A DNA stretch of 23,217 nucleotides, taken from NCBI GenBank assembly GCA_030587475.2, contig JAUQYZ020000210.1, positions 1 through 23,217 on the forward strand, given 5' to 3'. A model generated the notes under the pieces. The model was not told the DNA's origin, did not search any database, and worked only from the letters and a program-made list of their open reading frames with translations. This document shows, piece by piece, positions 4,735 to 13,051 of this stretch. Source of the stretch: Candidatus Sigynarchaeum calidifontis. GTDB lineage: Archaea > Asgardarchaeota > Lokiarchaeia > Sigyniarchaeales > Sigyniarchaeaceae. Within the stretch, counting starts at the first letter, position 1, and every line of letters starts with the position of its first letter. The position numbers were made by a program, and so were the translations under genes.

Positions 4735-5739
4735 ATGGCTTCCATAGCACACCAAGAACCTGAGGTCGAACATGCCGCGCGGATCTCGAAGGCAGATTCC
4801 CCTCCTTCTCGCCTTCGCGCCATCATCGCTATCATGCTCGTGCTTTTTGCCACGATCGTGTGGGGATCGCAATACATCATCATCAAGCAAGGCGCGGCGG
4901 CAGTACCCCCGTTCTTCTTCCAGGGTATGCGACACGTCGTGGCTTTCGTGGGATTCTGCCCCTGGTGGGGGCGCTTGCGCAAGATGAACCGTACCACGTT
5001 CGTGGGGGCGCTCCTGGTCGCCGCCACGCTGTTCATCTTGATCGCGTTCGTGACGATAGGGCTCGGCCTCACGACGTCGAACAAAGGCGCGTTCATAGCC
5101 ACCATGTATGTCGTGTTCACGCCATTCGTCGGTTTCGCCATACTCAGATCCAAGATCAAGCCCATGCACATCGCCGGGATTGCCATCGCGGTGGCAGGGA
5201 TGGCCATCATGCTCTTCGGGAACACGGCAAGCGAGAGCGCGGAAGTTGCCTTCAACGTCGGGGACGTGCTCGTGCTCATCGGGGCGTTTTTCAATGCCAT
5301 CCAGATCGTGCTGCTCGAGAAGTACACGAACCAGGTCGACACGATGCAGTTCGTGCTCACGCAAATGTGGATGATCGCGGCGTTTAGTCTCGGCACGTCG
5401 TTCCTGATCCGGGAGCCGATGGACTGGCTGGCGATGCCCCCGGCGAGTATGGGGCAGATCTGGTTCGACTGGATCTATCTCGGCATTCTCGCGAGCACGG
5501 TCACGCTGTTCATACAGACATGGGCGCAAAAAACCATTGACGCCACCCGCGCGGCGCTCATGTACTCGCTTGAGCCCGTGTTTGCGATTTTCTTCGGCGT
5601 GACCGTCGGGGGCGAGCCGTTGTACTGGGCGTTCGTGGTCGGCGCCCTGCTCATCATGGCCGGCATCATCACGTCGTCGGTCAAGATTTCTTCGAGGAAG
5701 AAGAACGAGAAAGCGTGGAAGGGGAACGAGCCGGTTTAA
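4735..5739 (+). CDS. DMT/EamA family transporter
   Basis: About 10 hydrophobic helices in two repeats; motifs IVWGSQY, GDVLVLIGA, QTWAQK and SLEPVFA. Confidence 0.92.
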   Translation: MASIAHQEPEVEHAARISKADSPPSRLRAIIAIMLVLFATIVWGSQYIIIKQGAAAVPPFFFQGMRHVVAFVGFCPWWGRLRKMNRTTFVGALLVAATLFILIAFVTIGLGLTTSNKGAFIATMYVVFTPFVGFAILRSKIKPMHIAGIAIAVAGMAIMLFGNTASESAEVAFNVGDVLVLIGAFFNAIQIVLLEKYTNQVDTMQFVLTQMWMIAAFSLGTSFLIREPMDWLAMPPASMGQIWFDWIYLGILASTVTLFIQTWAQKTIDATRAALMYSLEPVFAIFFGVTVGGEPLYWAFVVGALLIMAGIITSSVKISSRKKNEKAWKGNEPV

Positions 5740-6404
5740 CGCGGATTGCACTCGATGACATGGCGGGTGCTTAAATAATCCAGCTTGGCCTTGGCTGGAC
5801 CGGTTAGCGCGAATATTTTGGTACCATCCGCGTCTACGGAGACGAGACCCACCACTCCACTTGATTTCAACCTTTTCACGTGTGCCGAGATTGCTTGTCG
5901 TGACATGCCAATGGTACGGGCTAAAGTGGCAATGCTGTGCCTCTTCTTGTCGTCCTTGTACAGTTCCGACAGGATCTGCTTGTCGAGGGGATGGTTCCAT
6001 GCAGCGACGATGGTGCGCGTGAAACCGTCGCGCAAGGTCGAGTTGTTGACGACATACCTCGCGTACCGCCCGTCACGGAACTGGCTGATGTTCTTGAATG
6101 CCATCAGCACCTGGACGTGGTATTGCACCACGCCCACTTCCTTGTCGGCTACCTGGCAGATCTCGCGGAAATGGATGCCCGGATGCTGTTCGATGATGGA
6201 AAATATCTGGCCACGCGTGCTATCGGGAGCGATGATTAGCTCGTTCTCGTCATTGGTGATGTGGATGTACGATGTCGAGAACGCGACTCCATGATTGGAC
6301 GATATGCCTACATCCGGGGCCCTGGTAGAGAAAAGCAATTGGCCGGCGGTAGTTATCACGATCGAGATCACGAACAAGGCGAAAACCAGCTTTTTGGACG
6401 CCAT
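5736..6404 (-). CDS. Membrane-anchored double winged-HTH transcriptional regulator (archaeal COG3398-like)
   Basis: N-terminal hydrophobic helix, then TRGQIFSIIEQHPGIHFREIC...GVVQYHV and a second HTH IATLARTIGMSRQAISAHVKRLKSSGVV. Start placed at MASKK (6404). Confidence 0.8.
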   Translation of the reverse strand: MASKKLVFALFVISIVITTAGQLLFSTRAPDVGISSNHGVAFSTSYIHITNDENELIIAPDSTRGQIFSIIEQHPGIHFREICQVADKEVGVVQYHVQVLMAFKNISQFRDGRYARYVVNNSTLRDGFTRTIVAAWNHPLDKQILSELYKDDKKRHSIATLARTIGMSRQAISAHVKRLKSSGVVGLVSVDADGTKIFALTGPAKAKLDYLSTRHVIECNPR

Positions 6405-6464
6405 CGATATAAGGAAGAACGTGACTCCATAAAAAAACAATTGGTACGAACCGAAGCACGCGTT

Positions 6465-6845
6465 TCACGAGCTGGGCTCGTGCAAGAGGATCCAGGTGAA
6501 CAGGACCCCGTAGACGACGTCGACAGCGCATAATCCCAGGATGATGGCGCCCATGCCCCCCGCGAAAAAGTACCCGACCAAGATGCCAGGGATGAAAAAC
6601 TTCTCGCACGCGCCGAGCAAGGCGATGCCGCGCCGCGCCGGCGGGTCCTTGTAGGCAATTAAAAAGGCAACGCCGATCAAGCCCACGAAACCCAGGAATG
6701 TATGAAACCACACCATCATGTTCGGGATGGTAAAGCCGAGGATGGTGAATGCGGAAGGCGCGACCACCGACACGAGGAAAAACAAGGCCGAGGCCACGAT
6801 GTTCCAGATCGCTCCCGTTAAAAAGATGATGCTATTCTTTTCCAT
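6465..6845 (-). CDS. Small 4-TM membrane protein of unknown function
   Basis: 126-aa ORF with four hydrophobic segments; TATA-like TTTTTTAT about 24 nt upstream (6869-6876). Confidence 0.8.
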   Translation of the reverse strand: MEKNSIIFLTGAIWNIVASALFFLVSVVAPSAFTILGFTIPNMMVWFHTFLGFVGLIGVAFLIAYKDPPARRGIALLGACEKFFIPGILVGYFFAGGMGAIILGLCAVDVVYGVLFTWILLHEPSS

Positions 6846-6902
6846 GTTTTACCGTTTGACGTGGATCCATAAAAAACCACGTTTCCACGGCACACGACTT
6901 CG

Positions 6903-6909
6903 AAAAAAA
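6903..6909 (-). terminator. Oligo-U archaeal-type terminator of the candidate ncRNA
   Basis: T7 run on the minus strand (CTCCTTTTTTTC) just after the second hairpin. Confidence 0.4.
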
Positions 6910-7095
6910 GGAGACCCCAAGGCATTAGGTTCCCACGGGATTTCCTTAGACCGACAGTCCCTCGAACGCCCGTGGGAACCGTGCACCAGTATCCAAACTG
7001 TTGCTTGTCAAACCGAATGCATCAATGATATCCGATACCTATTACATAGCATCAACTACCAATCGCATGTATAGATTCTTCCTCACTGGTGCACG
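6903..7095 (-). ncRNA. Candidate structured non-coding RNA of unknown class (~190 nt)
   Basis: Perfect 11-bp inverted repeat 6980-6990/7085-7095 and perfect 12-bp inverted repeat 6928-6939/6969-6980. Internal G-U-containing stems favour the minus strand. TATA upstream, U7 at the end, and no credible ORF. Confidence 0.5.
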
Positions 7096-7118
7096 TGGAA
7101 TACATAGGAAAATTCCCA

Positions 7119-7126
7119 TTTATAAA
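7119..7126 (-). promoter_or_regulatory. Consensus TATA box (TTTATAAA)
   Basis: Lies 24 nt upstream of the first base of the terminal stem (7095). The motif is palindromic, so orientation is inferred. Confidence 0.5.
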
Positions 7127-7440
7127 GTTAGCGGGTGCTCGTGTAAAAATTGCAGCTATGCCACGTTCTCTGATGTCGCTTGATGCCATCCGTGCAACAT
7201 CGAGTCATGGCTTGCAGAAACCAATGCTGGCGGACAATTGGTGATGCACAAGCTCATGATGCCCCTATCGGGCACGCGTGCCCAAGATCACGGCTGCCAG
7301 GTCGCGATCTCGGGGAACGCGCTCGATAATTCTCGTTCCGGCACGGGCATCCGCGCCCATCGGGAGCCGGTGCGTTCGAGAAACAATTCATAAATAGCTG
7401 GCGGGGGGTATCTTGCTTGACCACACGAGGACACTTTGCC

Positions 7441-7938
7441 ATGGCAGAACCAACGCAAGCCGCGCCGGGCGAGAAACCGGCCGAGAAGAAGGAGAAGAAA
7501 AAGCGCCTGAAGGGGTTCGCGGGCATGATCGCGAACATGTTGAAGCCACTGAACGATAACGATAGGTTCAAGGAGCGATTCGGTGCTGAAGTGCTGACTT
7601 TCGTCATCAACGCCACGGATTTCCCGCCCGCCGCGGTGATCAAGGTCGACAAGGGCACCATCGTCTTCGAGGAGGCACAGCCCGACGAGGTAAAGAAGAT
7701 CAAGGGTGCATTGCTCCAGGGCACGATGGACAACATCATGAAGGTGGCATCGGGGAAGCTCGACCCGATCAAGGCCATCTTCAAGCGGCAGATCAAGGTC
7801 AAGGGCGCGCTCAAGTTGCTCAAGCTGAACAAGATGTTCTTGTATGCTATGAAGGCCGCGACGGCAGGTACCTCGCCGGCACCTGCACAGCAGCCGGCTC
7901 CCGAGACAAAGCCCGGCCCAGCTCAGGGCAGCGCGTGA
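7441..7938 (+). CDS. SCP2 sterol/lipid-binding domain protein
   Basis: C-terminal SCP2 signature IMKVASGKLDPIKAIFKRQIKVKGALKLL; Ala/Pro/Lys-rich termini. Confidence 0.85.
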   Translation: MAEPTQAAPGEKPAEKKEKKKRLKGFAGMIANMLKPLNDNDRFKERFGAEVLTFVINATDFPPAAVIKVDKGTIVFEEAQPDEVKKIKGALLQGTMDNIMKVASGKLDPIKAIFKRQIKVKGALKLLKLNKMFLYAMKAATAGTSPAPAQQPAPETKPGPAQGSA

Positions 7939-8187
7939 ATCCCCCGCGCACGAACCATCCCCCGTCTTTCCATCGTCCTTTTTTTCCATCGTGGCTCTCG
8001 TGGGACATCGCAATTGATATAACGATGCAACACGATTCATGGCGTGCGCCATGGCGTGCGGAATAATCTCATTTCTCCATGCTTATTATAAAAACGTGGT
8101 GTCAAAGACTACGCTATGGATATGACAAAAAACCAAAGAAAAGGATAGGAAAAACGGGAGCGCGTGCATTTTCAAGACGCGTGGGGC

Positions 8188-11135: not shown

Positions 11136-11236
11136 ACCATCAATTCCAATTTCCCTTTTTTTCCCTCCATTCAGGCCCAATTGCATCGTCCTGGGAATAC
11201 CATGTCCTTTTGTACTCCCGCGACGGACTTCGATCC

Positions 11237-13051
11237 ATGATCGACCTCGATCCCGACAGCGAGCTAAAGGAAGGCCAGGCCCGCGCACGCCAGGGCGCGA
11301 GTGACGTCGCCCGGGGCGCATCGACCGCGGAAGCACGGCGCAAGCGGGCCACAGCGCCGGAAGAACGCCTGGCCTTTGGCAAGGGTGCTCGCCTCGCCAG
11401 CCTGATCGCCCGCGCGGGCCTCGTGGCGTGGGCATTCTATTTTTTCATCCCTCAATTCGCCGCGACATGGATGCTGGAGGCCCACGCCACGAGCCGCGCC
11501 TATACGGCGTTCTACTGGCTCGTGAACGGCTTCTTGCTCGCCATCACGCTGCTCGTGGCGTGGAAATACTACCACCCGCTTTCGTTCTTCGGCTTCGTTC
11601 CCATGGTCGCCGCGTGCGGCTATTCCATGACTCGATTCTTCGTGGAAGGCCCCCTCTTCTTGAACGTGCCCGGCACCGTCGCATCGATAGCACTCGTGGG
11701 CATCATGCTCTTCAACATCGTGTTCCAGGTCTTCCTGCTCGTCCGCAACTTCGCGACCGGGCGGTTCGTCGAGGCCTTCTCGGCATTGCCGAGGAGCAAG
11801 GTCTTCAAGGTCGCGCTGGTCAGTAGCATCGCGTGGGCGGGCGTCACGTCATGGTCCTACATTGGTTTCGGCCAGGTCTACACGGTCCGGGACTTTCACC
11901 AGCCGAGCTTCTCGATCTCGTTCTGGGGACTTCCTTCCATGGGTTTCTCGGTTGGCGAGTACAAGACCGCGGACGGGATCGCAGAGATGAACCTCTACGC
12001 GCAGCTCAACGCGTCGTTCTATTGCAGCATCGATGATCACGCCTTCGACGGAGATATGAGCGATTGGGAGAAAATGCTCAACGAATGGGCGCCCTATAAC
12101 GTGAGCTTGATCCTCTGCATCAACCCGCGCAGCGACCCGTCCGACTACAACAGCCAGGATTTCTGCTCGTACTACCACGTGCAGCAGATGAACGCGTCCA
12201 TCCGGTCCATGATGGAATGGATGGACACGCTTAACACTACCGTGCGGTCGAGGATCCGCGGCTTGTCGTTCGACGTCGAGGGACCGAACTACCAGCCACT
12301 CGACCGGTACCCGATCTCCCGCGAGCAATACAAGCTCGCCGTGCGCTCCTATCAAGGTATCCTCGACGAGTTCCAGCAGAACACGAGCTGCTCGACGCAC
12401 CTCATTGCGATGTCGGGCATCTTGTTCGACGCGATGGATGGCAAGGCCGACCACGATCTCGACATCGCCCAGCGGACGGTCTCGACCGAGCTCCGCTGGA
12501 CGCAATATGGCTTCATGACCTACATGATCAATCCCGATCCCGTGTCCCGCTACGAGTTCGTCCAGCACTGCCAGCTCGGCGTGGAGCAGTGGGGAGCAAA
12601 ATTCGTGCCGTGGGTCGGCTGGTGGTACGACGTGAACCTGGCGGCCGGCGAGACACCCCAGATCGAGCTGCCCGGCGTCTACGAGCAATCGATCGAGCAA
12701 GTCAAGATCGCCAAGAGCAGCGGTGTGCCCGAGGTCGTGCTTGCCCCGATACGCGGTTTTTTCAGCCAAGGCAACAATGCGACGAAGATCCAGCAGCGGC
12801 TCGGCGACCTCGTCGCCATCAAGAATGGCTTCGAGACGTTCGCGATCCCGATCACCCAAAACATGCGGATCTTGAACAACTGGAACTTGTACTGGCAGAA
12901 GATCGTCCCGTATTACATCTGGTCGAGCGAGAACGTCGTGCTGGACATGCTCATGGGCACCCCGGGCGAATGGCTCGCGATCATGCAAGGCATATCCATC
13001 GGCATTGTCGCCGCCATCGCGGTGCTCCGCGGCCGCAAGGTGCTGCTCTGA
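11237..13051 (+). CDS. Multi-pass membrane protein with a large soluble glycoside-hydrolase-like (TIM barrel?) domain
   Basis: About 5 N-terminal TM helices, a ~350-aa alpha/beta domain with GLSFDVEGP (DxE), and a C-terminal TM. The fold is inferred and the start is uncertain. Confidence 0.65.
   Translation: MIDLDPDSELKEGQARARQGASDVARGASTAEARRKRATAPEERLAFGKGARLASLIARAGLVAWAFYFFIPQFAATWMLEAHATSRAYTAFYWLVNGFLLAITLLVAWKYYHPLSFFGFVPMVAACGYSMTRFFVEGPLFLNVPGTVASIALVGIMLFNIVFQVFLLVRNFATGRFVEAFSALPRSKVFKVALVSSIAWAGVTSWSYIGFGQVYTVRDFHQPSFSISFWGLPSMGFSVGEYKTADGIAEMNLYAQLNASFYCSIDDHAFDGDMSDWEKMLNEWAPYNVSLILCINPRSDPSDYNSQDFCSYYHVQQMNASIRSMMEWMDTLNTTVRSRIRGLSFDVEGPNYQPLDRYPISREQYKLAVRSYQGILDEFQQNTSCSTHLIAMSGILFDAMDGKADHDLDIAQRTVSTELRWTQYGFMTYMINPDPVSRYEFVQHCQLGVEQWGAKFVPWVGWWYDVNLAAGETPQIELPGVYEQSIEQVKIAKSSGVPEVVLAPIRGFFSQGNNATKIQQRLGDLVAIKNGFETFAIPITQNMRILNNWNLYWQKIVPYYIWSSENVVLDMLMGTPGEWLAIMQGISIGIVAAIAVLRGRKVLL

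Follow-up and report, generated by a model that had tools for sequence, protein, structure and literature searches.

Intergenic trans-acting small RNAs (sRNAs) of archaea and bacteria, such as those of Haloferax, Methanosarcina and Sulfolobus and those associated with Hfq or SmAP, are the closest described counterparts of an element at positions 6903-7126, on the minus strand, of contig JAUQYZ020000210.1 from the Asgard archaeon Candidatus Sigynarchaeum calidifontis. The contig was analysed over positions 1-23,217, and this whole stretch of 23,217 nt is referred to here as the window. Like these sRNAs, the element lies in an intergenic gap behind what appears to be its own promoter, falls in the 50-300 nt size range, has a stable 3' hairpin and a U-rich tail, is conserved in close relatives only, and contains a conserved, weakly structured stretch that may act as a contact region. 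It differs from them in its invariant stretches of 27-33 nt, which are much longer than the usual seed regions, and in the 18 nt that separate its last hairpin from the U-tract; a clamp and a hairpin combined in one rod is not a described sRNA layout.

The gene for the signal recognition particle (SRP, 7S) RNA of the same genome (RF01857) is alike in the spacing of its TATA box, in its 3' T-run and in ending in long helices. The element shows no sequence or covariance-model similarity to SRP RNA, is about half its size and is found in one genus. Box C/D and H/ACA guide sRNAs share hairpins and UGAUG-like motifs with the element, in which UUGAUGC occurs twice, 30 nt apart. It differs from both in having no CUGA box D/D', kink-turn (K-turn) or ACA, and its would-be guide pocket varies between species.

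With modest confidence, the element is best explained as a stand-alone, single-copy gene for a non-coding RNA of ~170-190 nt, found so far in one Asgard genus only. As expected of an independent RNA gene, a transcription factor B recognition element (BRE) and TATA box lie at the correct distance, a U-tract marks the end, the sequence is non-coding and it is conserved above its surroundings; the transcript is predicted. Among known prokaryotes, Asgard archaea are the closest relatives of eukaryotes. Most prokaryotes carry numerous lineage-specific small RNAs. Full-text literature searches found no paper on the non-coding RNAs of Asgard archaea. A promoter-driven, strongly conserved and uncatalogued RNA would be one addition to the Asgard inventory of non-coding RNAs and a concrete locus to look for in metatranscriptomes. 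The one-genus range limits its weight, which would be greater if the RNA proved to sense a signal in cis or to partner with a lineage-specific protein.

Conservation and architecture of the candidate RNA element

The source genome (G000) is an Asgard (Promethearchaeota) metagenome-assembled genome (MAG) of 5.0 Mb and 89% completeness, in which BLAST finds the element once, matching itself only. Two further copies were found, one in the same-genus MAG G001 (JAFGBX010000218.1, isolate Zod_Metabat.1055), the only other species of the genus available for comparison, and one in the metagenome contig Ga0172366_10001193. Both lie between the same two flanking genes as in the window, an SCP2-domain gene and a gene for a putative 126-aa membrane protein. 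The RNA core (6926-7098) is 90.1% identical to the window in G001 and 93.6% in the Ga0172366 contig. The corresponding nucleotide identities of the coding sequences are 73% and 80.5% for the 126-aa protein, 76% and 86% for a winged-helix regulator further downstream, and 88.5% and 82% for the SCP2-domain protein. The upstream gap is essentially unalignable in G001 and 72% identical in the Ga0172366 contig; the 3' spacer has no match in G001 and is 73% identical in the contig. The initial annotation had made an RNA gene depend on such conservation, and the core is indeed 90-94% identical against flanks that are unalignable or ~72% identical.

In the three-way alignment, high conservation starts ~70 nt upstream of the predicted transcription start, is near-total from 7097 to 6927 and ends abruptly, within ~3 nt after 6928, so that the conserved core extends over 7096-6926 (~170 nt). 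The longest runs that are invariant in the three sequences measure 33, 28 and 27 nt. One of the invariant runs (7065-7097) covers part of the interior of the element and the 5' arm of its first helix up to the predicted start, and another (7014-7041) lies within the interior. The substitutions are concentrated in a linker at 6993-7013 and in the apical part of the second hairpin. Protein coding was rejected: stops occur in all six frames, no frame is open across all three sequences, and the substitutions among them show no codon periodicity. Judged from these alignments, the element is non-coding and under purifying selection.

The TATA box TTTATAAA (7119-7126, minus strand; TTTATTAA and TTTATAAG in the relatives) keeps its leading T-T-T-A-T in all three sequences. 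On its minus-strand side it is preceded by a purine-rich hexamer, GCTAAC (7127-7132; GGTAAC and GGAAAG in the relatives), which fits the archaeal BRE pattern RNWAA. TTTATAWW has three matches in the window, two of which are this same palindromic box read on both strands; its orientation is assigned from the BRE-like hexamer, which lies on one side. The predicted start, judged from promoter geometry, is A7096 or G7094 (7094-7096); it coincides with the foot of helix 1 and follows the TATA box by 22-24 nt. The SRP RNA gene of this genome has the same spacing: TATTTAAC stands 22-23 nt before position 1 of the Rfam match, and a T4 run follows the gene. That SRP RNA (G000:C173:6613-6919) scores 80.8 bits, under the RF01857 gathering score of 96.5, and no SRP RNA was detected in G001.

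At the other end, the tract of seven U residues at 6903-6909 is the likely terminator, with four U in the metagenome copy and three in G001. Archaeal transcripts are ended by U-tracts together with aCPSF1, and a Lokiarchaeota aCPSF1 ortholog was shown to act with U-tracts likewise (PMC8716108). Between hairpin and U-tract lies a poorly conserved 3' tail (6910-6927), from which 5 nt are deleted in G001.

A further block, CGTGGCATAGCTGCAA (7150-7165, minus strand), is located 24-39 nt upstream of the TATA box and is nearly invariant, while the rest of the upstream gap diverges. It is unique in the genome, and near-matches to it elsewhere in the genome are not enriched over control, giving no sign of a shared upstream motif or regulon. 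The block is a possible regulator binding site, and its conservation suggests that expression of the RNA may be regulated.

Two helices form the framework of the element, and the minimum free energy (MFE) fold contains both. In helix 1, CGUGCACCAGU (7095-7085) is perfectly complementary to ACUGGUGCACG (6990-6980), with 23 nt between the TATA box and 7095; in helix 2, GGUUCCCACGGG (6980-6969) is perfectly complementary to CCCGUGGGAACC (6939-6928). The positions initially assigned to TTTATAAA (7126-7119), the helix arms, UCUAAGG (6950-6944), CCUUGGG (6922-6916) and the U7 tract (6909-6903) are right. The 11-bp and 12-bp stems of that scheme are perfect, abut and appear in the MFE fold, but their sum does not stand, since G6980 was counted in both. 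By the folding model, the layout is either 10 Watson-Crick pairs plus G7084-U6991 (arms 7084-7095 and 6980-6991, the former invariant in the three sequences) followed by 12 bp, as in the MFE fold, or 11+11 bp. The helices abut without a spacer in either case and can, in the model, stack into a rod of ~22 bp that would place the 5' start beside the conserved 3' end.

Hairpin 2 (6928-6980) consists of the perfect stem 6969-6980/6928-6939, which is invariant, and an apical part of 29 nt (6940-6968) in which 7 positions differ among the three sequences. Helix 1 encloses an A/U-rich interior of 92 nt (6992-7083) with a GC content of 0.40-0.43, against about 0.55-0.60 in the surroundings.

Simulated 23-kb windows contain, on average, about one perfect inverted repeat of at least 11 bp with a loop of at most 100 nt. 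Chance would not be expected to yield two such repeats that directly adjoin, lie between genes and stay unchanged in three organisms. Compared with dinucleotide shuffles, all three copies of the core fold better (z = -4.5 to -5.6), a low-energy signal due to its pair of perfect repeats. Folding of the 92-nt interior does not surpass that of its shuffles (z = -0.25 to -0.40). Two sub-hairpins with G-U pairs had been drawn within it in the initial annotation; they are possible foldings without support, their pairs showing no informative variation. A proposed pseudoknot or switch between UCUAAGG in the loop of hairpin 2 and CCUUGGG in the 3' tail fares no better. In the metagenome copy one A-U pair has become C-G, a compensatory change, and another pair is broken; in G001 the tail partner is deleted.

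From this architecture a working scheme can be proposed for a stand-alone gene. RNA polymerase would start at A7096 or G7094, 22-24 nt past the BRE/TATA promoter, and transcription would stop at the U-tract 6903-6909. The GC-rich 10/11-bp clamp would hold a 92-nt, A/U-rich and nearly invariant segment that has no stable fold of its own. The RNA would act in trans, in regulation or by binding protein, with the invariant and weakly folded interior as the surface that contacts an mRNA or a protein. Together, the rigid helices and U-rich tail may confer stability and offer a binding site for an Sm-like protein. The conserved block ahead of the TATA box could serve to regulate expression, and the putatively membrane-anchored winged-helix protein encoded two genes downstream is a possible regulator.

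Several findings weigh against a stand-alone, trans-acting RNA. Its mode of action would be read from architecture only. Neither a target nor a partner came to light: BLAST found no extended complementarity elsewhere in the genome, and complementarity to the 16S rRNA of a family member did not exceed that of shuffles. Folding is equally good for the antisense and the sense strand, and the TATA octamer is palindromic, so that the strand is assigned from three features, namely the BRE-like hexamer, the T-runs and the side towards which conservation extends. Covariation is absent and speaks neither for nor against the fold, the helices never varying among three sequences that are 90-94% identical. 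Finally, the weak U-tract of G001 (U3) may permit read-through into the 126-aa gene there. Target prediction by duplex energy against neighbouring start regions was too noisy and was not used.

A separate gene or a leader of the downstream operon

The downstream neighbour of the element is the gene for the putative 126-aa membrane protein (6465-6845, minus strand), with the winged-helix regulator gene (5736-6440, minus strand) two genes downstream, as seen in the ORF (open reading frame) list and Pfam scan. This arrangement raises the question of whether the element is a cis-acting 5' leader of a 126-aa/winged-helix operon, a riboswitch-like or protein-binding attenuator that senses a ligand or protein and then lets transcription stop at the U-tract or read through. 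The element is on the same strand as the 126-aa gene and ends ~80 nt before its ATG in all three organisms. Its size, invariant unpaired stretches and variable peripheral loops would fit a large aptamer, and the short U-tract of G001 makes read-through plausible.

The region between the element and the 126-aa gene points to a separate transcript. A T-rich box, TTTTTTAT (6869-6876, minus strand), stands 23 nt before the ATG in the window and 22-23 nt before it in all three organisms. This fits a promoter of the gene's own with a leaderless mRNA, which from its sequence context is the likely function of the box. The three-way alignment shows no conserved Shine-Dalgarno sequence before the 126-aa gene and no conserved expression platform, and the spacer, where such a platform would lie, is the least conserved part. 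Moreover, in genus g3 the ortholog of the 126-aa gene is preceded by a ~100-nt gap that holds no such RNA, the element occurs in one genus only, and its interior has no fold beyond chance.

A leader is therefore unlikely, although it is kept as a minority explanation. The initial annotation had left the matter between an independent RNA gene and a riboswitch-like leader; of these the gene is favoured, and it is the structural details of that annotation that did not stand. A separate gene is preferred because its TATA spacing equals that of the SRP RNA gene and a BRE-like hexamer precedes the box, because a U-tract (U7, U4 and U3 in the three copies) follows the conserved core, because the 126-aa gene retains a T-rich box of its own with no conserved Shine-Dalgarno sequence, and because the g3 ortholog of that gene does without the RNA. 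The more specific proposal that the core is the sensor of a new, archaea-specific class of riboswitch or attenuator, gating read-through of the U-tract into the membrane-protein/winged-helix operon, is rather more doubtful.

An attenuator could also work through a short leader peptide, and a frame of 8-9 codons does begin at AUG 7068, with a stop at 7044 or 7041 and GAGGA upstream. It is open in all three sequences (MRLVVDAM, MQLVVDAM and MQLVIDAMY), with UAA at position 7042 changing to UAG, or to UAU followed by UAG. The three substitutions in the frame all fall at first or second codon positions or in the stop, and no third position varies. The spacing between GAGGA and AUG is long (12 nt), the peptide lacks a run of any single amino acid, and conservation continues for ~100 nt past the frame. 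A translated leader of this kind is very improbable.

The distribution of the element agrees with a narrow, lineage-specific gene. BLAST in 60 relatives gave one homolog, from the same genus. The covariance model R1, built from the first two sequences, found genus members only in 151 genomes of the order and 150 of the phylum, and no match in three relatives from the family and order at E <= 10 with laxer filters. Neither the 126-aa ortholog in G003 nor the SCP2 ortholog in G002, both from the same family (f1, G000-G003), adjoins such an RNA. A 20-mer scan of metagenome contigs returned one real copy and one chance match in an unrelated low-GC contig. An 18/19 match in contig C104 was set aside as chance level.

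Known RNA families, mobile elements and DNA-level readings

The element matches no catalogued RNA family and would, on the evidence of these searches, be an uncatalogued RNA. Rfam 15 gave no match in the whole window at gathering thresholds. At E <= 10, four matches in 6700-7350 were at chance level (13.5-15.1 bits), none of them to 5S rRNA, SRP RNA, RNase P RNA or a riboswitch, and ARAGORN found no tRNA or tmRNA gene in the window. These searches bear out the earlier impression that the element resembles none of these classes, and no family match has come to light that would speak against a new RNA.

Several classes were tried individually and rejected. The absence of a clean box D, remarked on in the initial annotation, is complete, CUGA occurring nowhere in the RNA, and the UUGA of the linker is not conserved; a box C/D sRNA was rejected accordingly. 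The same annotation had seen a box C/C'-like K-turn strand at the first stem, but this suggestion fails on the partner strand. The 5' strand at helix 1 could supply GAG and GA for an L7Ae site; the strand opposite GUGAGGAAGA has GGAU before the helix, with its GA one position off and not next to the helix, and the G is A in G001. For an H/ACA sRNA, hairpin 2 is followed by UAA, UAU or UUA in place of ACA, there is no ACA after either hairpin, and a K-turn is lacking. An H/ACA sRNA with a conserved rRNA target is also a poor fit because the internal-loop bases vary between species. An Sm site was rejected on reading of the alignment. For a retron RNA, helix 1 closes the first domain only, and no reverse transcriptase is present among the Pfam-scanned ORFs of the window. 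A circular RNA processed at a bulge-helix-bulge motif, considered by eye only, was dismissed because the predicted start at the foot of helix 1 leaves nothing on the 5' side for pairing and because conservation does not extend to the 3' tail.

The element might instead be a very divergent or reduced universal RNA, either RNase P RNA or 5S rRNA, as RF00373 and RF00001 have no match in G000 or G001. RF00373 is found in none of the four genomes of family f1 versus 19 of 21 in two sister families. UGAGGAA, directly after helix 1, resembles UGAGGAAC of the RNase P RNAs of the order, and the alignment allows 6 of 7 pairs between 7076-7070 and 6997-6991. This possible P4-like pairing is, however, broken by a G to A change in G001, and hairpin 2 lies outside the closing helix, unlike in any RNase P RNA. 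Neither Rfam nor an nhmmer search with all filters off, based on a profile built from 13 of the order's RNase P RNAs, finds anything on the element. The 5S rRNA of G002 is recognisable by its loop C motif (CCGAAC...GGAA), which the element lacks. The two other genera of the family have no homolog even at E <= 10, and a universal RNA could not be restricted to one genus, which excludes such an identity for the element; this reading is hardly credible. The missing 5S rRNA is attributed to a gap in assembly, because 16S and 23S rRNA are likewise undetected in these MAGs.

The family f1 genomes lacking an RF00373 match are 63-89% complete. In G000 the nhmmer RNase P profile and a simple descriptor of conserved regions I and V (CR-I/CR-V) gave nothing convincing. 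Either the RNase P RNA is very divergent in the high-GC family f1, or the first-look filter misses it. The 5S rRNAs of families f1 and f4 score 25-29 bits against RF00001 (cut-off 38 bits), compared with 53-69 bits in family f2. The low-scoring loci are G002:C2:11659-11779 and those in G018, G012, G022 and G024; the 3' half of the G002 5S rRNA looks unusual.

The inverted repeats look terminal, as they would in the remnant of a mobile element, for which the initial annotation had in mind a miniature inverted-repeat transposable element (MITE) or an IS200/IS605 end, here possibly with a guide RNA. A multi-copy distribution was to be the sign of this. The element is single-copy in a 5-Mb genome and has the same chromosomal neighbours in three organisms. 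Searches of phage, plasmid and viral-contig sequences gave no match to it, and no transposase, TnpB or reverse transcriptase was found among the Pfam-scanned ORFs of the window. A mobile origin is largely refuted already and must be rated as highly improbable.

The same repeats could also work as DNA. Together with the A/T-rich stretch they could bind a regulator, a recombinase (as part of an invertible switch) or an origin-binding protein. Both helices are perfect and invariant inverted repeats containing the palindromes CACGTG and GTGCAC; the equal folding of the antisense strand, and an A/T-rich interior without RNA fold beyond chance, are also what a DNA element would show. A 170-bp block with invariant runs of 27-33 nt far exceeds the size of an operator, however; its start lies exactly where a canonical TATA box would place it, and its end precedes T-runs. 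The interior points the same way in each of the three organisms. The Pfam-scanned ORFs of the window, of which some long ones matched nothing, include no gene for a recombinase, Orc1/Cdc6 or a partition protein; some ORFs were unscanned. A DNA-level element is thus quite improbable, and a separate RNA gene stays the preferred explanation.

Neighbouring genes and other features of the window

The element occupies part of a gene-free gap at 6846-7416. The other border of the gap is the divergent SCP2-domain gene (7417-7938, plus strand; PF02036, E = 1.6e-6), which is 88% identical in G001. Its listed TTG start (7417) is TTA in G001. GAGGA stands 9 nt before an ATG at 7441, and a conserved ATAAATAG box ~50 nt before that ATG; from these signals the true start is probably the ATG at 7441. 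A minus-strand ORF at 7288-8052, which apparently precedes the element, looks spurious because it is antisense to the SCP2-domain gene and has no Pfam match.

The 126-aa protein, taken for a 4-TM protein in the initial annotation, has no Pfam family and belongs to a tiny family of its own, with 11 proteins at E <= 1e-5 among 5.8 billion, the window's own included, all of them 126-127 aa long. The G001 ortholog has 58% amino-acid identity to it, and nine further relatives, one of which is NMC04495.1, have 69-82% identity. G001 also carries a second, distant paralogue (32% identity) on a different contig. In the winged-helix protein, the first ~35 residues are hydrophobic and look membrane-anchoring.

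The Pfam-scanned ORFs of the window are of a housekeeping kind, with oxidoreductases, trp genes and an EamA transporter among them; for several of the long ORFs no family was matched. Genes for transposase, TnpB, reverse transcriptase, Cas, integrase, Orc1/Cdc6, partition proteins and recombinase were absent from the scanned set, some ORFs being unscanned.

Two other features lie further off. On the plus strand, the ~170 nt at 11403-11571 contain a 37-nt direct repeat as well as three inverted-repeat arms, GCCCACGCCACGAG and its complement, which are perfect and 13-14 bp long. These repeats sit inside a 613-aa ORF (11210-13051) that has no Pfam match. A strong TATA-like octamer, TTTATAAT (8085-8092, minus strand), lies in the low-GC gap that separates the SCP2 gene from the convergently oriented GFO/IDH/MocA oxidoreductase gene. 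Apart from the start of the probably spurious ORF (8052 downwards), no obvious feature follows on its 3' side, and the octamer may serve as promoter for a small ORF or a further small RNA.

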